A stretch of DNA of 64,000 nt from Isurus oxyrinchus. Lineage: Eukaryota. Position 1 is the stretch's first letter; each line of letters begins with the position of its first letter. The translations under genes were made by a program, and so were the position numbers. The notes under the pieces are model-generated. The model ran no database searches and was not told the origin of the DNA. It worked only from the letters and a program-made list of their open reading frames with translations. Location: contig JANJGN010000026.1 in NCBI GenBank assembly GCA_026770705.1, positions 5,952,001 to 6,016,000 of the forward strand. Reading direction: 5' to 3'. Shown in pieces: positions 954-51,070 of this stretch.

Positions 954-1124
954 GCATTTTGAATGGTTCAGATAACTGACTGGAAACTTAGCAACCGTAA
1001 ACTGGCTTAATACCAGTGTAATGATAATAACAAGGAGATCCATCACCGCCATGGATGCCAGATACTGTGTATCTCGAGAGACCACATCTTCCTCGGGATA
1101 GGATCACGATAGTCAGAAAGTTAG
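954..1124 (-). pseudogene. GPR139-like GPCR exon-2 5' fragment (TM1-TM2)
   Basis: Acceptor AG (1126-1125), then ANFLTIVILSRGRCGLSRY / frameshift / YLASMAVMDLLVIIITLVLSQ, matching the other copies in the window; truncated near the end of duplication copy 1. Confidence 0.85.
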
Positions 1125-1905
1125 CTATTAGGCAGAGAGAGAGGGAGAGAGAGAGAGAGAAAGAAAGAGAGGAGAGAGAAGGGAAGAATTAATGCTCAAA
1201 CTCCCAGCTGGACCATCAGTTTGGCTGGAGAATAGTATGGCATATGGACCATCAATAATTCATTCACCGCTGGAACTGATTAGTTTACCAGTGTATTAAT
1301 GCTGGTCCTTTTTTTATTTATATTGTCCCAAATAAACTGGAAGTCGGAATATAAATAACACAAAACAATTATTTTCCGATTCATGAAAATTTTATGTAAC
1401 CTAGAAGTTGAATGTATTGAGCTTCACTAACGTGACGAAAGGGCATTGAAAATGGCATAAAAATACAGATGAAAAATCACTACATTTATTCATTTAAAAA
1501 TACGGTAAATAATGTTATGAAACATTAAACCACTTTAATAGTGAAACCAATCGGATGACAGGAAATAAGATATGGGTAATAACGAATTCTTAACAAATAT
1601 CAGAAGGAACCAAGGAACAATGCAAAAGAAAAGTTGAGCCAACACCATTGATTCAATTTGGGTTTTGCCCCTGTGGAAACAAGTCAAAGCTCATCAAAGG
1701 CTTTATTGCAGTTCAGTGATTGCTGTAATGGGAGGTTAGGTCTCGCAGTAGTAGTGAGAATTTTCAACTGTTAAAGCAGAAAGGCCTCGGTTTAGAGCCT
1801 CATCAGAAGGACGACAGAATAGATAGTGTTGAATTTGCTCAGGGTCATGGAGCTAGGCTTCCGACACAAGGTCGGAAGTAGGGCTCAAACACAGGGTTTT
1901 CCGAA

Positions 1906-2863
1906 TGAACAGTGAGATTTCAAAATTAATTTCGGCTAAATAAAGTGGCTATGAGAATAAGGAATTCCGGCTCTGAAGGTTATCACACATACTTGACAAC
2001 AAAGTGCACTTCTAAGGAGAACTCAATGCAGCTGTTAACAGCAGCAACGGAGTTAAATGTGATCTTCATTGCTGTTCATCGTTTGCAATGATTTGTTAAA
2101 GTTACCCATTGCAAAATGAACAACAGTAAACATGTGGAATGAAAGCATAAACATTGAAAACCTTACCATATCATTTATAGTTTCACACTAATTACAAAAT
2201 ATGATGACCTGCAATGTTGAAGCTTAAAGCGCCAGAGAAAAGCACCCTTCGACAAATTCTATTCCTTCTCCCACAGTTAGCTCATTCAGTTATCCAACAA
2301 CAACCCTTTTCAATGTCCTGTTCTTCTCTAAACTATTTACTGTACCACATGACTTATTTTCGGCAGCAATTTGGATACGAAACTTACTGTTGGTTCATTT
2401 TGATCCTTCTAAATGCGATGAAAAGCTGAGGCCCAAATACAAATCCTGAGAATCAGCAATCACCATCTGTCAATTGAACTGTATTCACATTATCTATGAA
2501 CAAATTAATGAGCTTTATACACACCGCAGCCATCGCGAGTTAAATTTACGTCGATATCAAAGTAAATTAACTTCTTGGCATGTAAAATTAATGACCCCTT
2601 TAATGAAGAAATTGTGGTGTAAATTACAATATTGAAGTAAGAATTAAACTACATTTTGCAGCATTTGTATCATTGCCAAAAATCCGATCAGCACAAGACG
2701 TAGAAAGCGCGGGAACACATACAACAATCTTGAATGTCTTGCCACTGGAAGGCAGCCAAAAACGTGTAGAAGCTAGATAGTAAACATTTGATCCTCATGG
2801 ATTCATAGTTAAAGAAAGGTTGAGAAGATCTAATTACGGAAAAATATGTAGCATACAATGAAT
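1906..2863 (+). repeat. Local segmental duplication, copy 2
   Basis: Colinear, diverged match to 6-929. Confidence 0.9.
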
Positions 2864-3648
2864 AATGCCAGATAGCACAGTAAACTACAGAGACAAGACG
2901 CATGCCCCTGTAAAAGCCATTTCCCAGACACAAAACCACAGAGAAATAGCTCAGCCATCTTTGGAATGCAAAGGGTTGAGTTTTGAGAGAATTCCTTTTA
3001 AAAGTTAAGACAAAGGCACACTATACTATTAAGAAATTATACTGGATTTTAAACATAGCTTCTTCAAATAAGTCTTCAAATAAGTATTTGTTTGAATATC
3101 CAGATTGTTCATTAAAGTGGATCTATAATTTTATGCTATCTTACATAGGATTGTTAGGTTTTATGCGATGATGACAGTATTGATATAGATATGAGTTGTA
3201 GCCTCTTACTAAAATCCTCACAAACCCACATATAAGTAACAATATCGTAGAAATGGTAAGTTTGCTTTATACGTGCGGATATTAGTCAACTTTTAAAGAG
3301 GTTTTTTCTTACCATAATATACCTGTAGTAATATTCTAAACTCGCAAAATTCTGCTGATTCGACAACACCGAGAGGTGAAGGTATTTAATTTTGGGACCA
3401 AGTTTATAGCTGGCAAACCTGACTATGTTATTTTAATGATCTAATTTTTTTCTCTCAGATGAAGTTTTAAGCCAACAATAAGTTTGAGTGGGTAGATTTA
3501 CCTTTCTGTATGGTAAAGAGAGTAAAATCAAAAACAGATAGACTTAAAACCTCCTGCCAAATTCTTTATAATCTAATTTACATCATCATTCAAGGTTAAA
3601 ACCTACTTCATTAATTTTTGTTCCTAAAGATGTTATAATCAGAGCTGA

Positions 3649-3687
3649 GGTTTTTGTATGACTGCTGCCACTCCTTACTACACTGTG
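3649..3687 (-). other. Consensus 23-spacer recombination signal sequence (RSS)
   Basis: CACAGTG (3687-3681), 23-nt spacer (3680-3658), ACAAAAACC (3657-3649), directly after the V exon. Confidence 0.97.
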
Positions 3688-3958
3688 TGTACAGCACAGA
3701 AGTAGGTCGCGGTGTTTATGAGACTCAAGGCTGAGATGGTCAGGGATCTGCCTTTCTCCAAACTTCGAATGACGGCTCTAAATCGACCTGAATGTTCACT
3801 GCTTGTCAACGCCATTAACAGCAGATTTGGGCTCTGGCTTGGAGGCTGAACGCACCAATGTATCACAGGGAATGGAATGGTTTTGCGGAAGTGTATCGAT
3901 ATCATTTTCTGTTCACCCGGAGTCTATGATGGTTAAGCTTGTATAACATCTCTTTTAC
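3688..3958 (-). pseudogene. T-cell receptor V segment pseudogene (alpha/delta-like)
   Basis: Phase-1 acceptor, then GKRDVIQA*PS*TPGEQKMISIHFRK..IHWCVQPPSQSPNLLL..GRF..SLTISALSLINTATYFCAVH. Two in-frame stops; first Cys position reads TTC; abuts a perfect RSS. Confidence 0.9.
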
Positions 3959-6900
3959 CTGTAACACACAAAGAGACCACGGGAGCAAAGCCATCAGCTC
4001 CAATCAGTCCCAACGTGTATCTCGGAACATAGGGGCAGGTTTTGGACTTTCAACTCTTCAGCCCTGTTCCAAATTCACATAGTTCTCATTTCGTCTGATG
4101 CCTAAATCTATTTGCTCTCCTTAGCCCAATACCCCGTGATGTAATTGTCCTTAGCTAAGGGACACCCTGGAAATATAGCGAAAGAAATACAAAACAAATG
4201 TGTTTGTGTGTGTGTGTGTAGTCATTCATTTTTATTTGAAATAATAAGGAAGTAAGATACCCCTTGATAAAATAGAGTCACGAGGGGCAGTTCCATCCTA
4301 TAGGAAAGGAAGAAACACCCAGTGCATCGCCCTGAAATACAGCCCAGATGTTTTTGCTGGCAGATTAGCAGCCGAGGTTTTATATATCAGTGCGATTCGA
4401 CCCGCATCACAATAAGAGACTAGTGTTTCAGTTAAAATCAATTATAGATATTATTTCAATGATAATTTGCTCATTGATCTGCTGACACTGCTGGAACAAT
4501 TGCTCAGAACTGTTCGATTTCTAAACATTCGGCTTTTTGAAAAAAATGTCTTTATTTAAAACATCACTTAGTGGATATCGGATATTTTTGTACATTTTGG
4601 AAAACCAGCGTGAAATTTTGAATGCTGATCTGCTTTATACTAAATGAAGTTTCTAAAAGATGTCTTACAGTATTGTTCACCATCTCTGGGGATTTAAGAA
4701 CAAAATGTGTTTCAGGCACTTTTTACGGCAGCCAGTGTGACAATAGCAAGAAGTGCCTTTCATGTTTAAGCTATTACGAGTGACGATCCACAGATGAGTC
4801 AAGATTAGCACATTCTTCCAAACGCTGATTAACAGGCAGTGAATTGTTGGTCTGGGGGCTCAAGCAGATATCGGGCCACATTTAATGTCAACTAGTATCT
4901 GCTTCCATTTTAAAAAAATGCAAACACTTATATTTTGTTTGTTATTATTAGTGGTTAGAATGCAACCAAACTAGGACTTTTAAAACACGTATTTTTTTTT
5001 GTTTTGCTTTTCAAACGGGCAGTTTCTCTGCAATGATGAGGGCTTGCGAGCACAAATCCACAGAGTTACAGCCACCCTCATGGTCCGGAGGTGTATTTAC
5101 ATAATTTTATCTTTTAATTATACGAATAAGTCGTATAAATGTTCACGCAATAATGACAGAAAAATGTCACATATTTAACATTCAATCAGCTCACATTCGG
5201 CACTGAGCATGGAGACGTAGTCTCGTTGCCTGTAATTTATGTGCCATGTGGGAAGTCCAAGACGATTGGTGCATCCTCTTTCTAAAAATAAGCAGGAAGT
5301 ACCTCCAATTGTTCGTTGTCCAGCACAGGCTCTCTGAACTTACAGAATCACTGCGATCCCTGCAGGTCATATGGAAGGCTGAGAATCATCTGGTCCGCAC
5401 GTTGGGATAGTTTCAATTGGTTTTCGCGCCATAACATCTAAGTTTGCAGATGATTGGAAACCATGTAATCCACTAATGACATGGAAAATAATTAACACAT
5501 TCTGGTGATATAGGCAGACACATAACAGGTAACACTTACATCGGAGAAGTATTAAATTATCCACTTTCGTAGGCATACTGAGGAAAGGTAATATGGATTA
5601 AATGCGTGATTTTATCAGGGGCCAAGAGCTCCTGGGATTTTATGGAACCAAAATTTGAAGGTCGCAGGATGAACAGAGATGGCTGCTCAAATACATACAG
5701 GATCATCGTTTTCCTAATAGAGGAATACGTACAAGAGGAAGGATTTTCATATAAGCCTTTGTCAAATACTGGTTACTCGTCCAGATTTAGGATTTGTGGT
5801 TGTATTAATAGATTACGTGCTAAATAAAAGATCGGCCATTTTGCACTGAGGTGTCATTAAAAATTCACACTCAGAGATTCAAGACAGAAATCGAGAAATC
5901 AAAGAAATCAATGAGAATCAAATAAATGTCGCAGAGAATTTCAGTCAATAATTTTAGTCAGGCTTCTAGCAAATGCCAAAGGAGCCAGGAGTATCAGAAT
6001 CACCTGATCTTGCTTCTTTATCGTATCTATTTTATCCAAATGAATAGGATAGAAAAAATATTAATTCTAACTTTATCTGCTCGTTTTCATCGTCTAGAAT
6101 AGAACCGAGGTGGTGATGTGTGGGATATGTTTCATGTTGATGCCTTTGCGAGACATGTGACAAACATGACAGACATTTCCTTTTATCGATGTGTTGTAAT
6201 TTTAGTGAATGGTCCCTCTATGTTAAATTTATACGTTATCTGACAATTTAATAAGGTTCAAGGCCATACGTTCACCTTCATAATCATTACCCGTACATAG
6301 AGAAATACTATTGATAACAGTTTCTCGTATAGATTTCCAAAGGACTTTATGCAGATTTAAAATGAATTACCTATGGATGTAGGTATAGGAGAAACAAGCT
6401 GCATATGAAAACATATTTCATGATGTTTTAACATAATGCGATGTATATTTATGGGTTTCAACCTTATTGCCAATGTTTGTGATGTTTCATTAAATTCGAT
6501 TTTCCACCTGGTTGAAAGCCGTCTCCAGCTGTTTCTGAGTGTTTTGATGAACATTAACGCATCATTAACAGTGTTAACGGTATGAATTTTAGAATAGCTC
6601 TAAAATTAGTCATCTGTTTGGCACTGACAGTTTTGTTCTGAGCTCAGGTGTAGTCTCTATGCTTTGAACGTTTGAAGTTGCAGAAGGATTTTATTGATAT
6701 TTTACATTAAATAGAGCGTTTCGGGCAACACAAGCTCCTGGGGAATTCCTATTACAGATCCCTGGTTGAAGAGAAACGGCTGATTCGTGCCTGCCCTAAC
6801 ACCAACTTTTTGATCTTTACTTTCTCTCATATTACATGTCACCTGTTCCGGGACATTACTTCACCAGGTATAGCTCCAGAAATATCAGTTTTAGCAAGGA

Positions 6901-7510
6901 TCACTCCCCAAACATTGCCCTTGGCTGAACTACCAATCTAATCATGCAACGGAAGACAATTACAGCACCAAACAGGGAGTCCCCACATTTCTAATGCCAC
7001 CGGCCTCGATGGAGGCATTTTCTGAAGGTATACCGTATAGACCAGGAGGTTAGCAAGAGAAATGAAGACTAGCTCTACCAGTAAGCAAAGTGAACTCCCA
7101 AGCAAGGAAATCTAACCTTGATGAACTGATCTCCCTTCACTGCTTGGAAATGCTTTCAATTAAACTGTGTACTACTCACAGAAACTCACTTCATCGACAA
7201 CGTTTTTAAAAAGAAAAAAAACGTTATAATGTAAACCTACTCCTTGCTGAATTCTTTATTTACTCTTTTACTGGAGATGCACCAGAGAAATATGACTTTC
7301 ATGTCTGGATTGATAACTGGAAATTAAAACGAACTCAAACCATTCTATAGGCCATGTTGGTACATTTGAAGCTTTGGTACAGTTTGCAAATATTTACCTG
7401 AACCTCTACATTATATCTGTCCTGTGACCCTGACAACACACCGTATACTTCTCACTACCAGGCTCCAGAGTCGCAATGAGAGCTTACCTACAAGTCACAA
7501 GGGCCTAGCT

Positions 7511-7549
7511 AGTTATTCTACGAGTTTCGGGCTGGTTCCTATCTCTGTG
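7511..7549 (-). other. Degenerate 23-spacer RSS
   Basis: CACAGAG (7549-7543), 23 nt, AGAATAACT (7519-7511). Confidence 0.8.
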
Positions 7550-8002
7550 AGAGTCAATACGCAGTAATACATCGGCTCCGTCAGAGAGCCGCAGTTTGGA
7601 AAATTTTAAGGTAATAGTGGCATTCGTAGTGACCAGTCCAAAGGAGAAAATGCTTCGAGCAAAAACTGCTCTCATTTGGTAATCAGCCGAGAACCTGCAA
7701 AGGAGAATTTGTAATTTTTTGCCAGGGTATTGCAGGACCCAGAATTATCTGAAGGAACTCTTGGCACTGAAATAGAAGCAGTCTGAAGTTGTAATGCCTC
7801 CTTTCTTCAAAATCACTGTCAGGAGGCGTTGTGTCACAGAGATTTCGTGAGTCAGGCCTGCATTAAATGCAAAATAAAGTCAAAAACTAACCAATTTTAA
7901 AGTGCTGGTACGTTTGGTTCAAAATTACTTCCCAGAATAATTACCCGTAATAACTGCTCCAAACACAGCACTGAAAATGACTAAGCACACTGCCGCTTTC
8001 AT
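7550..8002 (-). pseudogene. T-cell receptor V gene pseudogene (leader exon 8002-7945, V exon 7857-7550)
   Basis: Leader MKAAVCLVIFSAVFGAVIT with phase-1 GTAATT donor and an 87-nt intron. V reads GLTHEISVTQRLLTVILKKGGITTSDCFY..FR*FWVLQYPGKKLQILL..ITLKFSKLRLSDGA / +1 frameshift / MYYCVLT, then the RSS. Confidence 0.92.
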
Positions 8003-9159
8003 TGACGTGTATTAACTTAGGAACTTATAGAAACTGGCACAAATTGATCTCTGAAACTATCCGCATTGAGGGTCGATGTTCCCTTTTTATGCTCCCACTG
8101 ATATGTCGTGATGTTGTCTTTGGGGTAAACCACGGCTACGAGTCTCCAGACAATGAGAAAGGAAATGTTCCAATCGCACAAGCTGCAAGCATTAAAAGAA
8201 CCAAACAGGATAAGGATTGCATTCAGAGGGAAGCAATATATTTTTATAGTATCAAGCTTAGATTATTCACTCTTGACGTATTTGTGAACTTGTTGCAATC
8301 ACTAACAGTTGGAAATAACGACTGAATTTCACCAAGTACATTGAAGTTTACCAACGTCTTATATATAATGTAGCGTGTCACAGAACGTGGCAGAAGTTAG
8401 TCACTTCCGGGGAATATTCTACAAATATTGAAACTTTCTTTTTTGGTTTTAGTTCCATTAAAGGCACCCAGATATTAGAGTCCTGCATGAATTTCACAAA
8501 AATAATCAAGGGACATATAAATAAAAGGTTTCCCCTGTGGACAGTTCTGTTACATTATTAGTTACCAATTGCTCATCAAAACGGTACTTTGTATTTTACT
8601 TCCTTCTGTGACATTAACATGTGCAATAATTTGCATTGTCAATGAAATGCTAACTGTATCGCGTTTGCCCTGCCAAAGCTTCCAAGAGAGATAAAACACA
8701 CGTTGTCATTTTTAATCGTTGAGGTTATGTTAAAACCACCTCGTGAGGTGAACCTTCTCGCTGCTGCTGTAACCTGGGAGTGACAGTTGCGGTACAAGGT
8801 GCGTCAGAACGAGACAGGTGCACTTCCGGCTCTAACGGCGGCTCCTCATCTCCAACTGAATCGAAACAGATAAAAAGGCTGAACGGAAAGTAGGGCAATT
8901 GTATGACGAAATTATTCATAGAAAATGGTTCAGCATTTGAAAACACTGGTGACACCACATTTTCATTCTCCAAGTGCATTTCTGGGGACATGATTATAGA
9001 ATTAAATTTGAATAAAAAAATAAAGGACATGAATTAAGATCGAAACAGACAAGGGGGTGGGGAGAATGTTTTCATGGAATACACGAAACTAAGGCAGCTC
9101 TTTACGTACTTTGCGTGTAAAGTAACGCCATGCAACATCACCTCTTAGAGAGCAGACAA

Positions 9160-9520
9160 TGGCTTAGTAGCAATGTCACTCGAATAATTATTCAGAGACT
9201 CAGGCTCATCTTCGGAGGATGCATATTCAAATACCTCCACAGAAAGGTGATAAAATTAACTTAACAAGATCTGAATAGAGAATTCGTTTCAATGATCGTG
9301 CCTGTGAATTATCGCAAAAACACGTGTGGTTCAGTCATATCCTTCAGGGAAGGAAATCTGTTGCCCTTACCTGGCCTGGCCTCTATGTGACTCCAAATTG
9401 ATTGTTAACTGCCCTCTGATGAAGCACCCTAACAAACGATTCTGCTCAGTGACACTTAGGCATGGATAGCTTATGCTGGTCTTGCCAGCGACACCGACAT
9501 CCTATGAAAGAAATAAAAGA
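9160..9520 (+). mobile_element. tRNA-derived SINE with LINE-derived 3' tail
   Basis: Central GGGAAGGAAATCTG..CCTTACCTGG.CTGGCC..TGTGACTCC block; tail ATGCTGGTCTTGCCAGCGACACCGACATCC resembles the LINE end at ~30950-31010. Confidence 0.7.
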
Positions 9521-9839
9521 AATTTAAGAAGCACGACAGGAAACTTTAGCCCAGCAAGCTCCCAAAAAGCAGCAATGTGATCCTGACAATGTCACCCATT
9601 TTTATTATATTGGTTGAGGATAAATGTTAACCAACAGATCAGGCAGATCTTTATTTTCATCCCTTCCATCCTACTCACCTTCCTAACTTCATCCTTCCTC
9701 GGCCCCTTCCTAATTTCGTTCTTCCAATCCAGCATTGATATCTCCATTCCTCCCATCGCAATCCTTCAATATGTAACGTGAAGTTTTCACTGTCACAACT
9801 GAATGTTGTATCCTCACAGGTGATACACCACAACTGCTC

Positions 9840-10019
9840 TGTTATTGGGCAGACTCCGTGTGACTTTAACACTGTCTATTCCTGAGCACACAGGTATACC
9901 GCAGAGTACCCAATTATAGACTTGTGAATATCAAATGCAGTTGGCCATTTTATACAACAGATATTGATGTGGAATCTGCAGACCGTGTAATCGCTGCCAA
10001 ATGGCGGGATGAGCCACAT
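9840..10019 (-). pseudogene. Internally deleted TCR V relic with degenerate RSS
   Basis: FR1-like AAITRSADSTSISVV*NG joined directly to FR3 QLHLIFTSL*LG / frameshift / SAVYLCAQE, then GACAGTG (9876-9870), 21 nt, CCAATAACA. Confidence 0.65.
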
Positions 10020-10590
10020 TTGCATTAAACGAAAACAAAAATAAAAATACATGGAAAAAACTCAAAAGTTCTGACAGTTTCTGCGGGGAGAAACACAGTT
10101 TTCGTTTCGAGTCCATATGACTCTTGAACAGATCGTGCCTGCTGTCCAAATAAACCCATGTAAATGGACATAGTTTCTTCATCGTTGCCCCTCATCTCAT
10201 TGTGTTTATTTCGCGATCTTAGGACTTCCGAATGTTGACAACACATCCCATCATCAAAGTTATGTTCAGACGGAGTCTGCCGCTCTGCCGGCTTGAAGTA
10301 GTGATTCAGGGCACTGGGAGACGTGCTTCTGGAAAAATGCCATCCCTTATGTGTAACGGAGGAAGCAAACGGAGCTTCAGTTTAACAATACATTCGAAAG
10401 GTCTCATAGTCCTGCACCGAAAGGACAGTCTACATTATATGCGCAATCTCCGGACTGGGACTTAAAATAGCATTTTCTGATTCTGAGGCCAGAGTGCTAC
10501 CGCTGATCCACAAATCTGTAAATGAATGCCCGAAGTGCGATGCCTGATTGAAGCGGGGAATTCAGAGAATTCACAACAACTGGAGATGAT

Positions 10591-10629
10591 AGTTTTTGTA
10601 CTAGTGGTAAGGGGTTATGTAACGTGGTG
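10591..10629 (-). other. 23-spacer RSS with non-canonical heptamer
   Basis: CACCACG (10629-10623), 23 nt, ACAAAAACT (10599-10591). Confidence 0.8.
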
Positions 10630-10937
10630 CTTCATAGCCGCGCAGTAATACAAGGCTGAGTCAGAAAGCTGGGTGTCTGTGATCGTCAAAGGGATGTTTG
10701 TCTTCCTCCTGTTCTGTACGGCCGAAAAGCGCTTTACAAAAGCTGGTGCATTCTCTTCATTCCCAGCCGTGTGTCTGAGCAGCACATACTGAAGGCCTTT
10801 TCCCGAGTACTGTACGTACCAGAATAGGTAAGCAGCTGTGTATGTCACTGGGTAGATACAGGACAACACCGCAGTATCTCCTTCACTCACTACTACAATT
10901 GAGGGTATTTGGGAAAGTCTGTCCTGTTGGCTGTATT
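10630..10937 (-). CDS. T-cell receptor V exon (alpha/delta-like), open reading frame; leader exon not identified
   Basis: TTTTCCAG acceptor, then EYSQQDRLSQIPSIVVVSEGDTAVLSCIY..YLFWYVQYSGKGLQYVL..RFSA..PLTITDTQLSDSALYYCAAMK; both Cys, the Trp and DxAxYYC are intact. Confidence 0.92.
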
Positions 10938-11322
10938 CTGGAAAACAATAACAGAATGTTATCAAGGCAACTTTTCGATTTTTTGTTTCATTTGGATGAA
11001 AGAGGCATTTCAGTGCACACGCACACGCGTGCGCACACGGGCTCACGTTAAATCATTCCCTTCAATACGACGGTCGAATGCATTTCGAGTGTGAACAACA
11101 ACAAAAAAAACCACGGAGCTCCTGCGATTTCGCCCCTCAGTTAACTGAATCCAGGCCATCATCGTGCAATTTCCTTCTGGATGTATTCATCAGCCAAGGC
11201 TACCGTTTGCGCAGGAAATAGAGAAGCTCTTCTCCGGCCCGTTGAGACAGTGACAGATCAGCTTGTGGCTAATGTAGATACTGTACGCTCACTCACTGAG
11301 CGGTGAGCGAAGCCGAGGAAGC

Positions 11323-11335
11323 TGACGTCACCAAT
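11323..11335. promoter_or_regulatory. Perfect CRE (TGACGTCA) with adjacent CCAAT, candidate V-gene promoter element
   Basis: TGACGTCA at 11323-11330 and CCAAT at 11331-11335, ~390 bp upstream of the open V exon; CRE-type motifs are established TCR V promoter elements. Confidence 0.5.
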
Positions 11336-12328
11336 GGAGTGAAGAAAGATTGGAGGAAAATAACAATACAATAAACAAAATAAAAGCGTTACAATTGCAT
11401 GAAATACTTACTTGCTTGAACATTGATGAGAAAAATGCACACTTTGGTGAATGTTATTGTGGTCCACGAGACACAATGGCGATCAGTAAACATGTTGATT
11501 TCGTATTCTGTATGACAATTCCATACAGTACAGAAGTAAGCGGTGTATATTCAAGATATTTGCAACCTCCTACTACCGCGTTTCACATGAGCACAAATTC
11601 GAGATTTCTAAGCAACATGGCAATCGCAAATGTCAGTTTACTCTTTTTGACGTCTTATAGCAGCTAATGGGTGCGATGCTGGGAGGGGTGGGGCAGACAA
11701 ACAAAGTCAACGAATCAAAGTTTTTAAAAAAGTTCCAAATTCATAACTATAGCCCCGCCACAGAGTTGATGGACATCAAAGGTCATTGTTACTTGACAGA
11801 TACAATTGATTGTTATAATGTCATTCAATCCATTCTTTTACCGACGCAAGTGTCTATTGTTATGTGTTTGGAATCGATGACTTTTTAAATTTAATGGCGG
11901 TAAATGGTTATTCTTATTCAACAGCCAATACTAATCAATGCTATGAATGGATACCAATGAGCATCGTTTTGTGATGGACACCAATAGCCACTCATATATA
12001 ACAATCAGCACTTTTCAGCGTTACTCAATGCAGAAATAATACATTTTGTTTTTTGGTCGGACAGAGCTTGAGTATGTCTGAGAAAGAGACAGGACTAAAC
12101 TTATCGCCCTGCAATCATCAGGACACTCGGAAGAATGAAAACATAAAGGGGTGGGGGGACAATTTATGGTGTATGTGAGGAGAGCGCTGATTGGTTGGCA
12201 TGTGGCATTGCCATGAAGAATGCATCGCCGATGGTGATTGACAGTTAACTGCCAAGCATTGTTTGAAATTTAAAACAGGCAGCTCGAACCTGATTGGTCA
12301 AGGCTGACACATTCATGATGATGATGAA

Positions 12329-12377
12329 AAGAAGAAGAAGAAGAAGAAGAAGAAGAAGAAGAAGAAGAAGAAGAAGA
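12329..12377 (+). repeat. (GAA)n microsatellite
   Basis: Uninterrupted GAA run. Confidence 0.98.
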
Positions 12378-13059
12378 CGAAGATAATGTTGATGATCTGT
12401 GTGGTTTGTTCGCCAGAGGCCCAGCGAAGACTGTGCATTTCGAATGCCACCAGCACCCGTGCACCCCTTCCCCTCCAGCCTCCTTTAATGAGACTGGTGA
12501 ACTTGGTTGCACCAATCTATGGCAGAGGTACCCTGCCCCAGTTACGTAGACGAACACTGAGCACAGTACTCCAAATACGTTGTTTGCAAAGCTTGCAGCA
12601 AAGCTTCCTTACACACTTAATCCAAACGCCTTTCAACAGCTTCACAGACACTATTAGTTATTCTTTTTTCCAGTTTTCTATCCATCTCAATACACTACCA
12701 ACAATTTAATTGTGCTTTAAGTTTACACGCTAATCACTTATGTGGGTAAAGGCTTATTTCAAAAAGTAACCTTCTTAAAATATTCTAGGTCACCCCCTTC
12801 CATAAAAAAGAAGGAAAAGGAGTCCTTGTGTCTACTAGCAGTGAACTTAATGCCGTTGGATGTAGGCTGTGCAAATCCACACTGACCGTAGGATTGCTGA
12901 ACTGCATCTGTCCTGATTTACTGCTCACCCCACTGCACCTGATCCGGACATGGATCTGGCCGCATTGAATGTAAACGTACAGAATTGTATCTTACCACAA
13001 TTAACATAACTCTGCCGAATGCGACCTGACCAGAACTATGGAACAATGCTTGAAGGAAC

Positions 13060-13880
13060 TTTCCCCTAACTTAATCTATTGCATTCGTTGCTCCCAATGC
13101 CGTCTCCTCTACATTGGAGAGACCAAACGTAAACTGGGCAACCGCTTTGCAGAACAGCTGCAGTCTGTCCGCAAGAAAGACCCAAACCTCCCTGTCACTT
13201 GCCATTTTAAAACTCCACCCTGCTCTCTTGCCCATATGTCTGTCCTTGGCTTGCTGCATTGTTCCAGTGAAGCCCAACGCAAACTGGAGGAACAGCACCT
13301 CATCTTCTGACCAGGCATTTTACAGCCTTCCGGACTGAATATTGAATTCAACAACTTTAGAACTTGAATTCACTCCTCCATCCCCGCCCCTTTCCGTTTC
13401 GTCCCCCTTTCTTTTGTTTTTTCCAATAATTTATATCGATTTTTCTTTTCCCACACATATCCATTATTTTAAAATATATATCTTTTATGCCCTGTTAGCC
13501 TTTCCACCCCACCCCCACTAGAGCTGTATCTTGAGTATCCTGCCATCCATTCATAATTAACACATTCATTTAGATAATATTACCACCTTCAACAACTCTT
13601 TGTTCTTTTGTCTGTGACATCTTTTGATTATCTGCTCCTATCACTGTTTTCTTGTCCCTACAAGCACACCACCCGCCACACTCCACCCCCCCCCCCCCAC
13701 CTTAAACCAGCTTATATTTCACCCCTCTCCTTATATTCACTCAGTTCTGTTGAAGGGTCATGAAGACTCGAAACATCAACTCCTTACCTCTCCGCCGATG
13801 CTGCCAGACCTACTGAGTTTTTCCAGGTAATTCTGTTTTTGTTTTGGATTTCCAGCATCCGCAGTATTCTGTTTTTATCT
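13060..13880 (+). mobile_element. Penelope-like retroelement 3' fragment (GIY-YIG endonuclease plus terminal repeat)
   Basis: NLIYCIRCSQCRLLYIGETKRKLGNRFAEQ..PVTCHF..RKLEEQHLIF*PGILQPSGLNIEF; hammerhead-like motif at 13741-13782. Confidence 0.92.
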
Positions 13881-14580: not shown

Positions 14581-14602
14581 CTAACAGCAGGTATAAATGT
14601 GA
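14581..14602 (+). promoter_or_regulatory. TATA-containing core promoter of a GPR139-like gene
   Basis: CTAACAGCAGGTATAAATGTGA with TATAAA at 14592-14597, ~50 nt before exon 1; the same motif and spacing occur at the 47.3 kb paralog. Confidence 0.75.
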
Positions 14603-14647
14603 GCATTTTCGGTGAATTGCAGAACGTGCTCAGGTCTCCTGGGAGAA

Positions 14648-29112: not shown

Positions 29113-29114
29113 CT

Positions 29115-39207: not shown

Positions 39208-42200
39208 ATAGAATCTTAGAAGCATAGAAAATAGGAACAGAAGAAGTTAATTCAGCCCTTCGAGGTTCATCCGCCATTCATTGTGATGATGGCTGATCGT
39301 CTATCTCAACGTGGTGCTCCCACATTATCCTCAATCCCCTTGATACCTTTTGGGTGAAGAAATTTTTCTATGTCTTTCTGAAATATATTGAGTGATTTTC
39401 CCTCTGTGGCGTTCTGTGGCAGAGAGTTCCATAGGTTTACCACCCTTTGAGCGAATGTTCTCCTCATTTCAGTCCTAAATGGCATACCCCATAACCTGAG
39501 GCTGTGGCCCCTTGTTCTAGAACCCTCCACTCCCATAGCCAGAAGAAATACCATCCCCACATCCAGCATGCGACCCCTATCAGAATGTGGTACTTTTCCA
39601 TGAGGCATCCTATCATTCTTCTATATTCCAGTGAATATTGGCGTGGTCAGGACAATCTCTCCTCATACGACAATCCTGCCATCCAAAAAATCATTCTGGT
39701 GAACATTTGCTGCACTCCCGCTATGGCAAGTTTATCCCTCCTTATGTGAGGAGAACAAAACTGCACACAGTGCACCAGATGTGGTCTCACCAAGGCACTG
39801 TTTAGCTGCAGTAATTCATCCATGCTCCCGCACTCATGTCCTCTTGCAATGAAAGCCAACACAGCATTTGCCTTCTTAACTGTTTGTTGCACCAGCATGC
39901 ATGCTTTCAATGTTTTGTGTAGAAGGACAGCGAGGCCCCTTTGTGCATCAATATTTCCCAATCCATCACCATTTAAATAATATGCTGCCATTCAGTTCTT
40001 CCAACGGAATTGGATCACTTCACACTTATCCACGTTATACTGCATCTGCCATGTATTTGCCCACTCAAGCAACCAGTCTAAATCACCTTGGAGTCTCTTA
40101 ACACCCCCCTGATCATTCACATCTCCACTTAGTTTTGTGTCATCAGCAAAGTTGTAAAAATTACATTTGGTTCCCTGATTCAAATCATTGATACATATTG
40201 TGAAGAGCTGGGGCACAAACAGTGATCCCTGCAGTATCTCCAAAGTCAATGTCTGCCATTCTGATGAAGACAAATTTATTTCTACACGCTGTTTCTTGTC
40301 TTCTAAGCAATTTTTAATCCATATCAATATATTACCCCCAATCCCAAGTGCTTTAATTTTACACACCAATCTCATATGAGGCACATCATCAAAAACTTTC
40401 TGCAATACATCACATCCACTGGTTCTCCCTTATCTATTCTGCGAGTTAGGCCCTCAGAACACTCCAGAATGTTTGTCAGATATGATTTCCCGTTCAGAAC
40501 CCACGTTAAATTTGTCTATTCTCATTGATATTTTCTAAGTGTCCTGTTATTGCTTCCTTTTTAATAGGCTCTAGCATTTTGCTGACTACTGATGTTATTA
40601 TTTAAATGATGAAGGATAGGGAAATATTGATGCACAAAGGGGCCTCCGTGTCCTTCTACACCAAACACTGAAAGCATGCATGCCGGTGCAACAAACAGTT
40701 AAGAAGGCAAATGCTGTGTTGGCCTAACATCTCTCTTTTCTCACTCCCTCCTTTCTTCATTCATGGAGTTATATTATCCACCCTCCAATCTGCCGGGACT
40801 CTTGCAAAATCTGCAAAATTGTGGAAAGTGACAAGTAACGCATGCACTATTTCCACGCTACCACCTAAAGTAGCCTGGGATATGCACTATCAGGCCCCAA
40901 ACATTTATCAGCTTTCACCAGCACTATTTTTGTAATACTAATTTCCTTCAATCCTTCCTTCTCACTGGAACCTCGATCCTAGTATTTCTGGGAAGTTACT
41001 TGTGTCTTACTCCATGAAGACAGAACTAAAGTAGTTATGTAATTGTTCTGCTATTTCCTTGTTCTCCATTATAAATTCCACCATGTCAGATAGTTAGGGG
41101 CCTATATTTGTCTTCACTAATCTTTTCTGTTTCCTTTTAGATGTTTGTAGAAGGTTTTACAGTCCGCTTTTCTATTCCTTGCAAGTTTACTCTCATCCTT
41201 GATTTTTCCCCTCTTAATCTATTGGTCTTCCTTTGCTGAACTCTAAACTGCTCCAAATTCTCAGGCTTACTACTTTTTCCAATAAATTTATATAACGTCT
41301 CTTTGTATGTAATAATGTCCTTAATTTATTGTGAATGGGGCGCAATTCTTGTGCAGTTTATTTTGTGCCATAAAGGAACATATAACTGTTGTGGCGCATT
41401 CATTAGTCCCTTAAACATCAGCCATTGCCCTTCTACCATCATGCGATTTAATGAAGTTCCCCAATCGATCTTACCCAATTCATGCATCATAGCTTCATCG
41501 GTTCCTCAGGCCGGAGTTTCAGATCGGACTATTTCAATTTTGATCCGATTAAGGAATTTTGTCCTCCTGTGGTCAATTTTTCCTGAAGGCCCCGGCACAG
41601 CAAAATTATTAATTAACCCTTTCTCATTACACAGTACGAAATCTAGGATGGCCTGCTTCTACGCGGTTCCTGGAAATATTGGTCTGAAAAAGGCATCTCG
41701 TGCAAACTCCAGGAATTCATCTGTCGCAGTATTATTGCCAAGTTAGTTTGCCTGGTCGAAATTCAGTTTTAATGCATTCATGCTTACTGCAGCGCCCTTG
41801 TTACAGGCATCACTAATTTCCCACTTATTGTTATCCTCTATACTATCACTGCTGTTTGGAGGCCTATTTACAACTCCTAATAAGATTTTTCACCACTTGT
41901 TGCTTCTTAGATCCACCAGGACTGATTCTGCATCTAGATTTACTAAGCCAATATCCTCTTGCACATTCACACTGATTTATCTCTTAACAAGCAATGCAAT
42001 GTGATCATCATAAATACATTAAATGGATATTCAGTTCCCAGCTTTGGTCATCCTGCAGCCATGTCTACATAATCGCAATCATATCGTACCAACTTACATC
42101 TAACAATGCCAAGCCAGTCTCTTTTCATTTTTGCTTGTGCTGCCTAAATATCGAGTCTCCTTGGATATTCAGTTCCCAGCCTTGGTCACCTTCTCCATAA

Positions 42201-44820: not shown

Positions 44821-47251
44821 TCACCATTTCAAGAATTTAAGCATTAGACTCAGTGGATATTTCAACCCATTCTTTAACATCTCCCTAATTTTACTCTGGG
44901 TCCCTTCATATATAAAGGTGTTAATAGAGGAACTCAAAAGCTGAAGCATAAATCCACCTTCATCTAGATTAAAGTTTGATTCTTCATAATTGGAGCCCGA
45001 GAAATAGCTAACATTCTGAATTTGGGCGCAGAGACTGTCATAACAACTAACAATTATAACAGGATGAAACTTCCAGAGACACAATAAAGTAAAACAATGG
45101 ACTTTCACCTCTTCTCCATCTCTGGGTCTCCCTGATCATCGCCATTGCTATTGTCCTGGAGTCTCTGTGGGCTCTACTGGCCACTAAAATGTGTCTCACA
45201 GTCAGAGCATTGAACAGTAAAACCATTATAAATGGGAGACAAGGAGTTAAACTGACAATAATCCAGTGAAATGCAAGCCAAGCAAGTGACATATAAAATA
45301 TTGTTTTTATATTGCAGTACAAAGCTATAATCAAAAAAGCAGGCTCATAAGTAAAGTACATGGGGATATTTCTGACACAGTTAAGAGTGCAGACAGCTCT
45401 TGTAATCACAGCCGCTGTTTACTCTGTGCAATAATTGATTTTCAACTTCTGGCAACAAATGGCAACAAATCGATCCAAGGTGAAAGCGACAGTTACGCAG
45501 ACAGATGACTCTCTGAGTGCATAAATTAATGCAAGATGGAAACTGCAGGCTCGAGTGACAAACAAGAAGCTGAACTGGAAATAAATACCTACAATCCGGT
45601 TCAATAACACAGTGGTGATAATGACCAGGAGATCCATTACCGCAATGAAAACTAGGCAATAAGTGATAAATTTGGAGAGACCGCATATTCCTCGAAAAAG
45701 GATCACATTCACTGTGAAATTAGCTGTGACAAAGAGACATAGCCAGGGAAAAAATGATTGGGACCAAGGCCAGAAGAGCAGGAAATTTTGGAGATACTCG
45801 GAGGTTGTTGAGCAACTGCAAAGGGATTAAAACTCTTAGCATTTCAGGTCGATGGCCTTCCATATCACTGGAGAAAATGAAACCTTCCTTAAATGCAGCA
45901 AACCCTCAACGCTGAATTGTGCTGTGAGAAAGAATATGGTATCAGTCCTATAGTGAACTTGCTACTTTCTGACCCAGTTACAGAAAATTCACTCAATTAT
46001 CATTTCTCTCAATGTGTAAAGAAGAACGAAGGCAAGAACAGTTCAAGACATTGGCCAATCGAAGCAGCACTACTCTACCTACTGGGGAATTGAGCAGAAA
46101 TGCAAGACATGACATTGAATGAAAAAAAATTAAAAATGTTCCACATGAGGGCAAAAAGCTAGGATGGGACGATCACGTAAATGAAAATATTCTAATTTGC
46201 ATGGAAATTGAAAGGGAACTTAAACTCACGATTGATAATGATTGAAAGCCAAACTTTCAATGCTTCACAGCAACCAGTAAAGCAACTCAACAAGCAATGA
46301 TTCATCTTCAGGTCAGTTAGCAGCACCCTCACTTCTGAGCAGAAATTGCAGGTACAATTGCTGCTGCAGGACTCGAGTGATGAAAGAGTGTTGCACTGCC
46401 ATGGCCACCGTGTTTCAGGCCAGATTATGAACTGAGAACCCATCTAATAAAATAAAAGCAAAGTTTGCACCGATCTGGTAGAAAGCTGCCTTCGCATTCC
46501 ACTGCAAGGGACAAAGTATACGATGGGAAATCCAATAGTTGTGTCGATAAAATAATGGTTCTCCATATACATTTTATTAGTTCCCATACGGGGGCAGTGG
46601 AAGTAAGACAATTGAAGTAAAATTAAACAGTACTAAAACTGAAAAATCACTGTAAGCAATGGTGTTACAAATGCAACAGAATTGCATTTGCACCTTGAAA
46701 TGGTAGCGGTAAATGGAAGAAATTATATAATTGAGAGGATAAAATGGTGCTGGTCACTTTCCAACAATGTGGATAAACCATTCTAGACGCAGGGCACTGC
46801 AAAATTGGCGAAACTTCAACAGTAAAACAGATATTTATGTCAGTAAATGCAAGATGAATTGTTAACGGCAGGTCACCATCATCTTCTCAAGGGCAATGAG
46901 GGATGGACAATAAATATTGGCCCAGCCAGAGAAGTCCACATCCCGTGAATGAAAAAAAAAACTAAACTGGAAAAAATTATACTTTAAAAGGGAAGCATTG
47001 TGTACGATAAAGGGACAGACCATAAAAATGGAAAAGTTGCCCTGTTAAAAGTGAGAAAGAATATGTGTACCGGTGGAACAGCAGTACTGCTAAATGAGAG
47101 GAGGGATCAAGTAAAGTCAGAAGATGAGAGACGTGATTCAACAATGATTTCAATAATGAACCAGTGACTAAAGTACTTTACCTGGAACCCCGATTGCTGC
47201 AAGGGTGGGATAGTAAACGGCAAGGAACAGTCCTCTTGGTATTCCGTGCAT
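44821..47251 (-). pseudogene. Two-exon GPR139-like GPCR pseudogene (exon 1 47251-47182, exon 2 45723-44821)
   Basis: Intact exon 1 MHGIPRGLFLAVYYPTLAAIGVP with GTAAAG donor. Exon 2 ANFTVNVILFRGICGLSK..AFTLDRFVAICCQKLKINYCTE*..TPCLPF..GFMLQLLSSSINTFIY..KW*, with a stop and frameshifts. Confidence 0.93.
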
Positions 47252-47297
47252 TTCTGTCACAAGTGGAGAATGCGATTTATACTATTCTGTAAAATTG

Positions 47298-47320
47298 TCA
47301 CATTTATACCTGATGTCAGG
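47298..47320 (-). promoter_or_regulatory. TATA-containing core promoter of a GPR139-like gene
   Basis: CCTGACATCAGGTATAAATGTGA with TATAAA at 47308-47303, ~50 nt upstream of the ATG. Confidence 0.75.
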
Positions 47321-48158
47321 CCCCTGAGAAATAATAAGTTAGTCTGATCTTGCACATTAATTACAGTGATTGAATCAACCAGCTGAGTAATGATGCTGCC
47401 GAACATGTGCATTTTTCGAAGGAGAGGAAAGTATTTTTTAACTGACGCTACATAAAAGTGGAGTCACCATAAGATATAATATATTGTCAGCAATAATAAT
47501 GATCAGCAAACAGCTTCTACATCGACAAGTCCTCAGCATTGCCTCTTCGTGACAATAGCCAAGAGCTTGGACCCTGGCGGCCCCAGGCTAAAGCTGCAGT
47601 GGAACTCGGAGTAGGATTGGCCCCTATACCTGCACTCATGAGTAAAACTGCCAACTACAGTCAAATGGCTTCACTGCATTTTGGATACGTCGGGAGAGTT
47701 GAAGGCCCCCTTGTGAAACTTGACAAAATAAAATCCAAGAAATCGATTTGGGGTCCAAAGCTGGGCTGGTGTCCAAACTTAATATCTTCCCCACGGTTGC
47801 GCCCTGGAAGCAGAAGCCAATTTCACTGCCGATCATTAATACAACACGTCTCCAATAGACAGAGTTAAGTAATCCAGATAACTATTAACTAGTTTCCGAA
47901 TATTACTGTAAGATGACAATGTAAATATTAAAACATGAGACCATCATCAAATAGAACTCTTGCTGCTGGTGGGTAAATGAATACAGTTGGCTCCATTGGG
48001 CACTAAACTAAGATCATAAAGCTCCCATACCGCCGTTGAATCAAATTAATTATCTAACATCCATAGTTTCTGACATCGCCTATCCTTACCCACTCCGGAC
48101 GAAATCGAGTCTCACTCATTTCCCAGCCAACTTGGATCTTCATCATTGCACGTTTCCA

Positions 48159-48292
48159 TGAAGTTTCCACGTCCTTGCACACCGTGTTACCGTTTCCAGC
48201 CTCCGCATTTGACAATCTGCTGAAGTTTCCAGATCATTGCACACAGCTTTACCGTCTCCAGCCTCCACATTTCACAATCTGCTGAGGTTTCC
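48159..48292 (+). repeat. 62-bp tandem repeat (~2.2 copies)
   Basis: TGA(A/G)GTTTCC recurs at 48159, 48221 and 48283 with conserved TTACCGT.TCCAGCCTCC.CATTT.ACAATCTGC. Confidence 0.9.
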
Positions 48293-50161
48293 GCCACCTC
48301 CAGCATGATGACATCACAAACGCATCGACCCCTGACCTTTCAGAATCTCGAAGGGAGAGTTCACTCCGAGGCCCCCTGCTCCATTATTTAACCACCCTCC
48401 ACAGATCCTCCTCTTCCTGCATCACGTTCATAACGTGCAACACCTTCTCATTCACGTCCATTCTCTTCCATATAACTTCCACACATGCTTTCCATGTATA
48501 TACAGCGATTTGCATGAACATATTCTAATCTATCACATTCTATTTGCTGGTCGTTATGCTGCGTCCTGTACAAAGTGGGAAGCAAAAGCAGATGTGTATC
48601 CCATTTTTTATTTGCATTTGGAACTGAGTATTATTCCCTCTTAACTGATGAGGTTAGAGGCGAACCATGCTAATCTTCGGCCTCTGTTCGGAAACACTCA
48701 GGCAACCGTACACAAACTGTTCTAGGAGGCAGTGGGAGGAACAAATTTGATTGTGGCGTTGCTGTTGATCGTGTATAATTGGCGTGTCCTGAGCTCAGCT
48801 AAATGTTGAAGACAGCTTATCTGATCAGACCGTGAATATATCGTTTGATTCTGTCTCAGTACAAAAGCACACTCCATAATTGAGGCTTCCAGTTCTTACT
48901 GAAATTCTGCGTTTTAAGGAGGATGGGTCAGAAAAGCGACAACAGGTCTGGTGGGCACTTTGGCGAACATCTATTCAGTGTGTGCATGTGAACCTGCACT
49001 TTCAACCAGCTGCAGTTATAATTCTGCATCCCACTCCGACTGATGTCCTTCTGCCCTTGACCTTCTCTACTGTTCTGCTAAAAATCAACGAAAGCGAAGG
49101 AACAAGACTTCAATTTAGGTTTAGGAAGTGTCCAGCCATATGGCTCAAGACTGAGTTGAACCATTTCAGATCAAACGCCTTCCTGCCATTTTTTTTTGGA
49201 CAACAGCCTTAGGCAATTATTCTATCAACACTGATTCCGCTTCCTCTTGTCCTATTTCCTGAAAAATATTGTTAAGTTATGCTGCTGCATCAAAAGGCAG
49301 CAAGTTTGAACTCCGCTCCTGAATCCGAATCTGTAATCAAGCTCCGTACTCCCGGTGCATTGCTGGAGAACTGCAAGACCGTCAGACCGGCCGTCCTTCT
49401 GAGGAAAAGTTGAGTGGATGTCGTTCCACTTCTTCAATTACAGGAAACTCGTGACACTGTTAGAAGATCAGATGTTTCTGTCTGTGAGACATAAACAGCA
49501 ATCTACTGGCAAGATATATCAGAAATACATGCAGACGAATCTATAATCTCCCAACCTACTGTAGCAGGATCTCACTGATGATAACAGCTCCCACTAATGT
49601 ACATTAGCGTACTGCAAAAAAAAACTGCCGATGCTCCTTGACTTCTTTCCAGAGGAGTAGAGGCCGCATTCAACCAATATTATTGGTGCATGGCTTTCTT
49701 TTCCTCAACCTTCAACCTTAATGATATTTATTAAAACTTTCTTATTAACCATATATTACTTCCTATCATTCGCTTCATTCAGCTTTATTTCTGTTCTTCT
49801 GCAGTTCTTATTGTGATCATTTACTATGGTTTATTATGAATCAACGTGCGGTATTTTATTATAATTACTTCCATGTTAACGTTGCTATTAGTCCATTAAT
49901 ACCTATATAAATTATGTTCCCTCTACTTCTCTATTATATAAAGTTTTCATGGATCTAAAAAAAGAAATGCTACGTTTCCTTTATGTTTGGCATTCCAGTT
50001 TTATTTGAAACAGTCATTTGCTTTGTTGAATAAAGAGCAATGCATTGATAAAACAATCAGTTTCAGTGTTGATTAGTGCAAATATCATACCATCCTGCCA
50101 CCAAAGTGATGTTGTAGCTATGACTCTGATTACGACTTCCATCCTTCTCTATGTCTTACAG

Positions 50162-51070
50162 CTAACCTATTGACGATTGTGATCCCACGCCGAGGAAGGT
50201 CTGGTCTGTCCAGATGTATCACTTATTACCTGGTATCCATGGCGGTGACGAATCTCCTTGTCATTATCACTGCTGTGATATTAAGCCGGCTTCGCGCTAT
50301 CTATTTCCCACTGAGTTTCCTTTCCACTACCCCTGCCTGCAGCCTGATAATTGTCCTCAGCTGCACTTACAGAGACAGTTCTGTCTGGTTAACTGTCGCC
50401 TTTAGCTTCGATCGCTTCATGGCCATTTGCTCCCAGCAGCTGAAATGGAAATACTGCACTCATGAAACAGCAGCTATGGTTAGTGGAATGGTCTGTGTCT
50501 TCTTCTGCTTGAAAAACCCCCCTTTTTACTTCATATATGAACGTATGTATGTCAGCAATAACGTACCGTGGTCCTGCAGAATTAGGGAAATCACTCATAT
50601 TTCCGTCCCATGGAGGGTGTTTGACTGTCTGGACCGCATTCTAACTCCATGTCTCCCTTTTGTGCTCATTTTCCTGCTCAATGTACCGACTGCCAGACAT
50701 ATTCTATCAGTCAGTCGAACACGGGGGAGACTCTGAACCCAAAACATTGGAGAGAATCGGAGCGACCCAGATATGGAGAACCGCAGAAGGTCCATCATTT
50801 TACTTTTCACCATTTCTGGTAGTTTCCTTCTGCTTTGGTTGACATATGTTGTAAATTTCCTATTTGTACAAATTACAGTCAATAACTATCCAATAGGTTC
50901 TAATTCCAATGACCCGAAATTTATTCTGCAGGAAAGCGGGTACATGCTTCAACTCTTGAGTTCCTGCAAAAATCCGTGTATTTATGCAGGGACCCAGAGC
51001 ATATTCAGGGAGAGTTGAAAGACGCAGTTAAATATGCTATAAATCTAATTAGGTAATGGCGTAAACAGTG
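50162..51070 (+). pseudogene. GPR139-like exon 2, least decayed copy
   Basis: TTACAG acceptor; ANLLTIVIPRRGRSGLSRCITYYLVSMAV..FSFDRFMAIC..TPCLPF..RL*TQNIGENRSDPDMENRRRSIILLF..GYMLQLLSSCKNPCIYAGTQ. One internal TGA (50734-50736) and a frameshift after TM7; exon 1 not found. Confidence 0.93.

Follow-up and report, generated by a model that had tools for sequence, protein, structure and literature searches.

Receptor genes in the window

The window, the whole stretch of 64,000 nucleotides of Isurus oxyrinchus DNA that was analysed, carries TCR V segments of alpha/delta type and exons of class A GPCR genes. At least four RSS-flanked V segments had been claimed in a preliminary description. V segments are indeed present, but only three were found and a perfect RSS was detected in one. 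With a TRAV profile in all six frames, the three sites gave E values of 5e-20, 7e-8 and 5e-5; the next best place of the window gave 3.4. All three lie on the minus strand. The pseudogene at 3649-3958 (V 3688-3958) has two stops in FR1 and lacks the first Cys. Its 23-RSS at 3687-3649 is perfect, and perfect matches in 30 shuffles average 0. The pseudogene at 7511-8002 consists of a leader (about 8002-7945) and a V exon (7857-7550) interrupted by a stop and a frameshift, followed by a degenerate 23-RSS. For the third segment (10591-11083) the V exon at 10937-10630 is open. An in-frame stop interrupts the apparent leader, read by eye at 11083-11047, and 3 positions of the heptamer are mismatched; judged by these defects the segment is probably non-functional. 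The RSS of the 7.5 and 10.6 kb segments have 4 mismatches each, a level reached by 4.5 matches per window in shuffles. A functional V needs an open leader and exon, both Cys and a usable RSS, and each of the three fails in at least one of these.

A V-set exon, TRAV/TRDV as nearest relatives and a 3' 23-RSS characterise a TCR alpha/delta V segment and were found here; this class assignment covers alpha and delta jointly and was made by comparison with mammalian sequences only. Homologue searches with V sequences of the window gave 19 and 9 matches, only to mammalian or unnamed proteins. When 33 read-through frames, from 1.3-10.6 kb and from the final 600 bases, were scanned again with Pfam, the 7.5 kb V alone was detected (E 0.04). 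Since this score is marginal, a fourth V in a more advanced state of decay could have escaped notice. Candidate sites for a fourth V (5.0-5.4 kb, with C..W and 'ICAR' motifs seen by eye; 8.7 kb; 63.7-64.0 kb) were rejected, as neither the profile nor Pfam gave a score. A J-like 'FGTG' near 4.07 kb was rejected for want of an RSS. The search of the window revealed neither J nor C nor IgH exons. Among 103 other ORFs, Pfam identified only two RT fragments and one GIY-YIG fragment, and no Rfam match was obtained for the window.

A GPR139-like fragment and four exon 2 copies in both orientations, all disrupted, had also been described. This was borne out: five copies of a class A GPCR exon 2 were found and all five are broken. 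The first (966-1125, minus strand) is a truncated fragment of the 5' part (TM1-TM2) with one frameshift; 35 of 53 residues are identical to P0001, an intact horn shark member of the family. The copy at 16247-17214 (plus strand) is the most decayed, with 3 stops, 6 frameshifts and an insertion of about 150 bases. At 17803-18687 (plus strand) there are 2 stops and in-frame deletions, which follow the acceptor and affect the TM3 end. The copy at 44824-45730 (minus strand) has 3 stops and 2 frameshifts. The last one, at 50161-51065 (plus strand), belongs to a second subfamily; it has 2 stops and 1 frameshift and shares 76% identity with horn shark P0001.

Exon 1 was found twice. At 14648-14719 (plus strand) it comprises 24 codons with CTG at the start codon, and the GT donor is kept. 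At 47180-47251 (minus strand) it is intact with a GT donor and belongs to the 45 kb copy. For the 1, 17.8 and 50 kb copies no exon 1 was found (scores of 22-27 compared with a null range of 23-33). An assembly gap of 170 N lies at 20308-20477; three of the GPCR copies and the whole V group are located to its left in gap-free sequence. The interleaving of V and GPCR genes formerly described is modest: a single V group has the GPCR fragment on one side and the remaining four copies on the other, and no V was found beyond 11.1 kb. Going by their sequences, all eight copies (five GPCR, three V) appear to be dead.

The elasmobranch GPCR family

The proposal of a lineage-expanded GPCR family under birth-and-death evolution is supported. 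We identified an elasmobranch expansion with 745 matches, carrying the automatic NCBI label 'probable GPR139'. Among the 120 matches listed, 117 were named and all of these were elasmobranch; 113 were labelled probable or putative GPR139. Of the 120 listed, 47 are intact members of the horn shark, distributed over six contigs (26, 9, 8, 2, 1 and 1). The copies of the window nest in this family with support 100/100, are 58-77% identical to its intact members and share its two-exon structure with an exon 1 of 24 codons, which is seen for two of them. With support of 100/100 in both cases, three copies belong to one subfamily and the 50 kb copy to another, which holds sharks and batoids. A single clade for the window's four copies was rejected (p-AU 4e-43), and the copies are 43-54% identical to one another.

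Among bony vertebrates, the closest relatives found are those of salamanders, the coelacanth and teleosts. A gene from a salamander clusters with the elasmobranch family (100/99), and coelacanth and teleost proteins are the next relatives of the family with 25-32% identity. GPR210A/B, orphans of coelacanth and fishes that stand close to GPR139/142, were described in a survey whose text holds no shark data (Rinne et al. 2019, PMC6504862). That the coelacanth and teleost relatives correspond to GPR210 is only a lead. Literature searches on GPR139 in sharks and cartilaginous fishes gave no description of the elasmobranch family. This large orphan GPCR family, hidden under a wrong automatic name, is apparently undescribed.

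The term 'GPR139-like' holds as far as a distant relationship is meant, but judged by identity (about 22%) and by E108/R244, which are not kept, the genes are not orthologues. Horn shark P0001 and human GPR139 share 22-23% identity, compared with 70% for the zebrafish orthologue used as benchmark. A copy of the window matched GPR139 with E 0.005. By profile, GPR139 was the best match with a solved structure (E 2e-16, next 3e-11), and with Foldseek it ranked first narrowly, by a small margin over CXCR2. The sequences show a 7TM rhodopsin fold, with GPR139 as the closest solved relative, and fit a GPR139/142-related branch of class A. Olfactory receptors are a poor fit, the best Pfam 7tm_4 score being 17.5 bits for one piece of the window against a cut-off of 27; in the 57 relatives scanned this domain was absent.

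The residues F109, H187, W241, N271, R244 and E108 of the Trp/Phe pocket of GPR139 were compared with 120 near members, positions being read from a profile alignment to the solved GPR139. At 3.32 I, T, S and N occur 53, 29, 19 and 14 times and E is outside the five commonest residues. At 6.51 Y was found in 83 and R in 5 members, at 5.42 D in 77 and H in 26, and at 7.39 N in 56 and Y in 45. Y at 3.33 (84) and W at 6.48 (92) prevail. Thus, the Trp/Phe pocket of GPR139 is not present in these members. With human GPR139 and GPR142, orphan class A receptors sensing Trp/Phe, the family shares the two-exon gene and, for the most part, an aromatic residue at 3.33 and W6.48. In contrast, it lacks P6.50 and usually P7.50, the E108/R244 positions are changed, and there are many copies instead of one gene. 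Pocket-facing positions vary more than other TM positions (mean entropy 2.04 versus 1.19 bits, 176 sequences). In the same set the extracellular halves are more variable (1.85 versus 0.96 bits); as this is generally so among GPCRs, the variable pocket speaks only weakly for a sensory repertoire.

Probable linkage to antigen-receptor and MHC regions

For the elasmobranch antigen-receptor complex (AgRC), TCR alpha/delta V in small groups, some of them pseudogenes, were tabulated over 8-17 Mb (Flajnik et al. 2025, PMC12227049). The V group of the window resembles these small scattered groups outside the main translocon; it differs in that no J, C or IgH exon accompanies it. The text of that paper is silent on GPR, GPCR and G protein, and its table contains Ig, TCR and psmb5 genes only.

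In six chromosome-scale batoid assemblies the listed matches lie on one contig each (3/3, 3/3, 3/3, 7/7, 5/5 and 4/4). Catshark P0006, the sister of the 50 kb copy, is located on a contig of 133,841,611 bases; AgRC genes of catshark chr17 reach 133,540,320, and chr16 measures 144,966,053. The sawfish relatives XP_051882927/929/930 are on a contig of 57,793,762 bases, and on sawfish chr12 the interval 54.0-55.6 Mb contains IgM and TCR delta. Numerically near to these relatives is sawfish IgW (XP_051883159), for which the source gives no chromosome. Against an inference from accession order, UrIg2, also an AgRC gene of the sawfish, is 17,000 accessions away. Contig size and accession order, rather than coordinates, indicate indirectly that one shark and one ray have probably both retained the chromosome-level linkage of the GPCR family to TCR alpha/delta. 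Other subfamilies were found elsewhere, on contigs of 98.3 Mb in catshark, 23.5 Mb in thorny skate and 24.7 Mb in Rhinoraja.

Furthermore, the published gene table of the sawfish MHC contains 13 genes of the same name, matched by name: 10 of them form a tandem array between class Ib clusters, and the other 3 are neighbours of C4/TRIM genes. All 13 are in the sawfish sheet; the lists for reedfish chr1, chr9 and chr12 and for the lungfish AgR chromosome in that supplement do not contain the name. MHC and AgR regions have been proposed as paralogues (PMC10751288).

A niche like that at the V end of the mammalian TCR locus had been suggested for the GPCR genes. In mammals, olfactory receptor clusters are found at TRA/TRD and in the extended MHC. 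They too are birth-and-death arrays of class A GPCRs beside antigen-receptor and MHC genes, but belong to a different receptor family, so the likeness is one of analogy, not homology. The suggestion stands with regard to the probable linkage to the TCR alpha/delta chromosome. A niche specific for the TCR V end is unsupported because of the same-named arrays in the sawfish MHC and the members on other chromosomes. Nor can the mammalian 'V end' be transferred directly, since V groups of sharks scatter over many megabases among IgH clusters.

Origin and meaning of the V and GPCR neighbourhood

In the reading we consider probable, two birth-and-death families share a duplication-prone region of the immune chromosome, and the window represents a decayed piece of the AgRC. 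The AgRC consists of IgM/IgW/IgNAR miniclusters and scattered TCR alpha/delta V groups, and a tandem array of orphan class A GPCRs would have resided on its chromosome since before the split of sharks and rays. Both families would grow by local duplication and shrink by pseudogenisation. V and GPCR genes would be neighbours because of this shared region and not because of joint duplication or function as one unit. The pseudogenes, their family membership, the two old subfamilies and the lack of a repeated cassette are shown, whereas we infer the chromosome identity of the window and its conservation. Points against this reading are the spread of the listed horn shark matches over six contigs and the finding that no read contig bridged V to GPCR in 4 of 24 runs from two organisms, with all 30 bins of 900-18750 covered; the N gap, which lies outside this range, was not bridged either.

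Co-duplication of the GPCR array with V genes, as formerly proposed, is unsupported: no V and GPCR cassette repeats in the window, and the GPCR copies belong to two old subfamilies. A cassette duplicated across the AgRC, each V group carrying GPCR copies, is improbable, although the 1 kb GPCR fragment is only 2.5 kb away from a V and V groups recur along white shark chr27. A high-depth contig of run X1 joins sequence of this fragment (to 1096) to sequence from 2870, beside the 3.7 kb V, which hints at a multi-copy unit elsewhere. Against a cassette, the three V regions show no mutual nucleotide similarity, their proteins are only 24-30% identical, and the GPCR copies diverge as stated above. 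Among 57 long or outlying gene models of the family, 8 are mis-joined to foreign domains (hemopexin/MMP, integrin alpha, sodium channel, hexokinase, TRIM, trypsin, uromodulin-like, Ig) and none to a V-set domain.

The varied neighbours in these 8 models would also suit an incidental adjacency, in which copies of a large dispersed family land near V genes in any genome and no link is conserved; so would the subfamilies on separate contigs in catshark, thorny skate and Rhinoraja. We regard this as unlikely, as the clade of the window's copies is confined to one contig per batoid genome and that contig matches the AgRC chromosome in two species. Little probability is likewise given to a functional role of the arrays within the immune complexes, with intact members as sensors of leukocytes or barrier tissue that are kept linked to MHC and AgRC, perhaps since a proto-MHC/AgR. 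The 13 sawfish MHC genes, the probable AgRC linkage and the proposed paralogy of the two regions are consistent with such a role. However, the MHC genes are known by name only and the name is confined to the sawfish sheet. Moreover, the term 'GPR139' is absent from four supplement files of the shark immune-cell atlas, which may use other gene identifiers.

Within the shared-region reading, the intact members are most likely a repertoire of ligand-diversified sensory-type GPCRs. They would combine a conserved signalling face with a variable pocket and may bind peptide or amine/amino-acid-like ligands. The window itself is a graveyard of pseudogenes; its interest lies in the GPCR family that it exposes. 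Elasmobranchs are thought to be poor in class A chemoreceptors, with 2 canonical and 6 OR-like genes (8 in total) and 32 V2R in the catshark, yet the horn shark has its at least 47 intact members. A speculative and rather doubtful extension of these sequence comparisons is an unrecognised repertoire of dozens to hundreds of GPR139-related GPCRs, which would outnumber the known odorant receptors of sharks and rays. With arrays in the MHC and the antigen-receptor complex, it might represent a fifth vertebrate GPCR family of chemosensory type (or for immune sensing), most of which bony vertebrates would have lost. Should the members prove to be receptors of sensory cells or leukocytes, views of shark chemosensation and of the gene content of the primordial MHC/antigen-receptor regions would need rethinking.

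Disrupted receptor and V sequences of the window

The DNA of the window is of vertebrate origin and rich in repeats, with an assembly gap of 170 bases at 20308-20477. Five copies of the GPCR exon 2 were located in both orientations: a 5' fragment at 966-1125 (minus strand) and four near-full copies at 16247-17214 (plus), 17815-18684 (plus), 45730-44827 (minus) and 50161-51065 (plus), named the 1, 16, 17.8, 45 and 50 kb copies. Lesions were detected in all five by frameshift-aware alignment to intact relatives, which confirms the preliminary description of one fragment and four further disrupted copies. Furthermore, two short GPCR exons 1 were identified, one for the 16 kb and one for the 45 kb copy, each lying some 1.5 kb upstream. 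Their flanks (14519-14733 and 47166-47381) are 70% identical and share an AT-rich element some 55 bases before the start; judged from sequence, these conserved flanks are a candidate promoter or 5' UTR. The 1 kb fragment lies between two direct repeats of about 930 bases (6-929 and 1906-2863, 77% identical), the second of which carries high-depth contigs in both organisms with contigs matching the window.

With a TRAV profile applied to all six frames, V exons were recovered at three positions of the minus strand (3.7, 7.6 and 10.7 kb), and no other place in the window scored better than E 3.4. When 33 read-through frames were rescanned with Pfam, no fourth V was found; since the 7.6 kb V itself scored only E 0.04 there, a very decayed one could be missed. 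The closest relatives of the segments are TCR alpha/delta V domains. Hence, TCR V segments are present as described before, but instead of at least four RSS-flanked ones three were found, one of them with a perfect 23-RSS. This segment, at 3.7 kb, contains two stops and lacks the first Cys. One stop and one frameshift disrupt the 7.6 kb V; the exon at 10.7 kb is open, with a stop in the apparent leader and three mismatches in the heptamer. A stretch at 5050-5370 (minus) with C..W and 'ICAR' motifs, maybe a very decayed V, was rejected, as it gave no profile score and has no RSS. CRE-like palindromes are known from TCR V promoters, and one is located at 11330-11345, some 250 bases upstream from the leader of the 10.7 kb V. 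No exon of J, C or IgH type was detected in the window.

Retroelement fragments were the sole matches among 103 other window ORFs scanned. LINE reverse-transcriptase fragments were recognized by Pfam at 29896-30324 (plus) and 39995-40429 (minus), and by eye at 61454-62203 (minus). A GIY-YIG endonuclease fragment (13005-13307, plus, E 0.001) embedded in a repeat of very high copy number (12.8-14.0 kb) is presumably the remnant of a Penelope-like element. A degenerate 54-base tandem array (27-base subunit, about 65% matches) at 57170-60260 and 62100-62700 is probably a satellite; its plus-strand frames are stop-poor (up to 223 codons), rich in V, I, D and P, and gave no Pfam match.

Identity of the GPCR family

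With the 50 kb copy as query, 745 proteins among 1783 candidates were matched at E <= 1e-5. Within the best 120 of these, all 117 named entries are from sharks and rays, and 113 carry the label probable or putative GPR139. At E <= 1e-30, a profile of 25 family proteins detected 132 representatives (50% clusters). The proposed lineage-expanded GPCR family is thus borne out.

Among solved structures, human GPR139 comes closest by profile (E 2e-16) and ranks first, by a small margin, in a Foldseek search with the model of a family member (pLDDT 77). The family is about 22% identical to GPR139, whereas 70% is reached by the true zebrafish orthologue. Of the six ligand residues of GPR139, most members retain the aromatic 3.33 and W6.48, but the charged E108 and R244 are not conserved. 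Therefore, the term 'GPR139-like' holds for the nearest structure, but the window GPCRs are no orthologues of GPR139.

In a 51-row IQ-TREE tree, calculated without true GPR139 or GPR142 sequence, the elasmobranch family and a salamander gene group together with support 100/99, and coelacanth, teleost and amphioxus proteins fall outside. The latter may correspond to orphans to which Rinne et al. (PMC6504862) gave the name GPR210. A larger FastTree run included four window copies and 195 of 278 rows; those covering less than 255 profile positions were dropped. The salamander gene is a close, well conserved relative with about 33% identity in three species (P0245, P0299, P0302) and a candidate bony-vertebrate orthologue. 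Several RefSeq transcript variants exist for relatives of the 50 kb copy in catshark (P0006/P0314) and stingray (P0016/P0315). Such variants usually reflect RNA support, so this subfamily may be expressed.

Linkage to the antigen-receptor complex

In elasmobranchs IgM, IgW, IgNAR and TCR alpha/delta are located on one chromosome as an antigen-receptor complex (AgRC), with V groups interspersed among the IgH clusters (Flajnik et al. 2025, PMC12227049). In catshark, the protein that is sister to the 50 kb copy lies on a contig of 133,841,611 bases; AgRC genes of catshark chromosome 17 extend as far as 133,540,320, and chromosome 16 has 144,966,053 bases (PMC12227049, PMC10751288). Three sawfish relatives are found on one contig of 57,793,762 bases, and IgM and TCR delta map to 54.0-55.6 Mb of sawfish chromosome 12 (PMC10751288). 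The accessions of these three relatives are about 230 away from a sawfish IgW, and catshark accessions ascend in the order of the contigs of 133.8, 98.3 and 71.0 Mb. RefSeq accessions are generally assigned chromosome by chromosome, and chromosome numbers usually follow size. The sawfish UrIg2 accession, 17,000 away, counts against linkage. In six batoid assemblies one contig each holds all family matches listed (25/25); those listed for horn shark are spread over six contigs. Contigs from two organisms cover V and GPCR sequence of the window, none bridging V to GPCR. On this indirect evidence, the V/GPCR linkage is probably conserved at chromosome level.

The gene table of Verissimo et al. 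2023 (PMC10751288) shows, by name, 13 'probable GPR139' genes on the sawfish MHC chromosome: a tandem run of ten flanked by two class Ib clusters, and three more next to C4 or TRIM genes. The text of that paper does not mention them. The named reedfish and lungfish gene lists in its supplement contain no such gene, and this speaks against a link that predates cartilaginous fish. In three species other subfamilies were placed on other contigs. Thus, of the suggested GPCR niche at TCR V genes the probable linkage to the AgRC chromosome stands, but the family is not confined to it.

Co-duplication of the GPCR array with V genes had also been considered. One hint in favour is a high-depth contig of the sequencing run X1, in which the 1 kb GPCR fragment and sequence adjoining the first V are connected. 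Apart from a SINE-like piece, no duplicate of the V region was detected within the window. Three window copies were assigned to one subfamily; the 50 kb copy belongs to another, batoids included. Forcing the four into one group lowers the log-likelihood by 159 units (p-AU 4e-43). A V-set domain was found in none of 57 long or outlying family gene models, eight of which are joined to domains of other neighbours. Co-duplication was therefore not supported.

Likely working of the family

The window is most likely a dead corner of a larger region, where two multigene families grow by local duplication and decay. In general, the preliminary observation was partly confirmed and its interpretation partly supported. 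Public genomes already carry annotations of the family genes, with a label that misleads; searches of open-access papers and preprints, subscription journals not being covered, yielded no account of the expansion or its MHC/AgRC placement. In mammals olfactory receptor clusters are located at TRA/TRD and in the extended MHC, a parallel to the placement of the elasmobranch GPCR arrays. PMC5278385 gave no passage on this parallel, and the supplement of PMC11372145 no match for GPR139.

For catshark 8 OR or OR-like genes only and 32 V2R are reported (PMC11979771), so a GPCR family of such size is notable. All 120 near members keep C3.25, the ECL2 Cys, D-R 3.49-3.50, P5.50, N7.49 and Y7.53. The pocket positions of intact members vary more than other TM positions (mean entropy 2.04 vs 1.19 bits), and the kin of the family are peptide-receptor-like. 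The conserved residues together with the variable pocket would fit a putative ligand-diversified receptor repertoire formed by the intact members.
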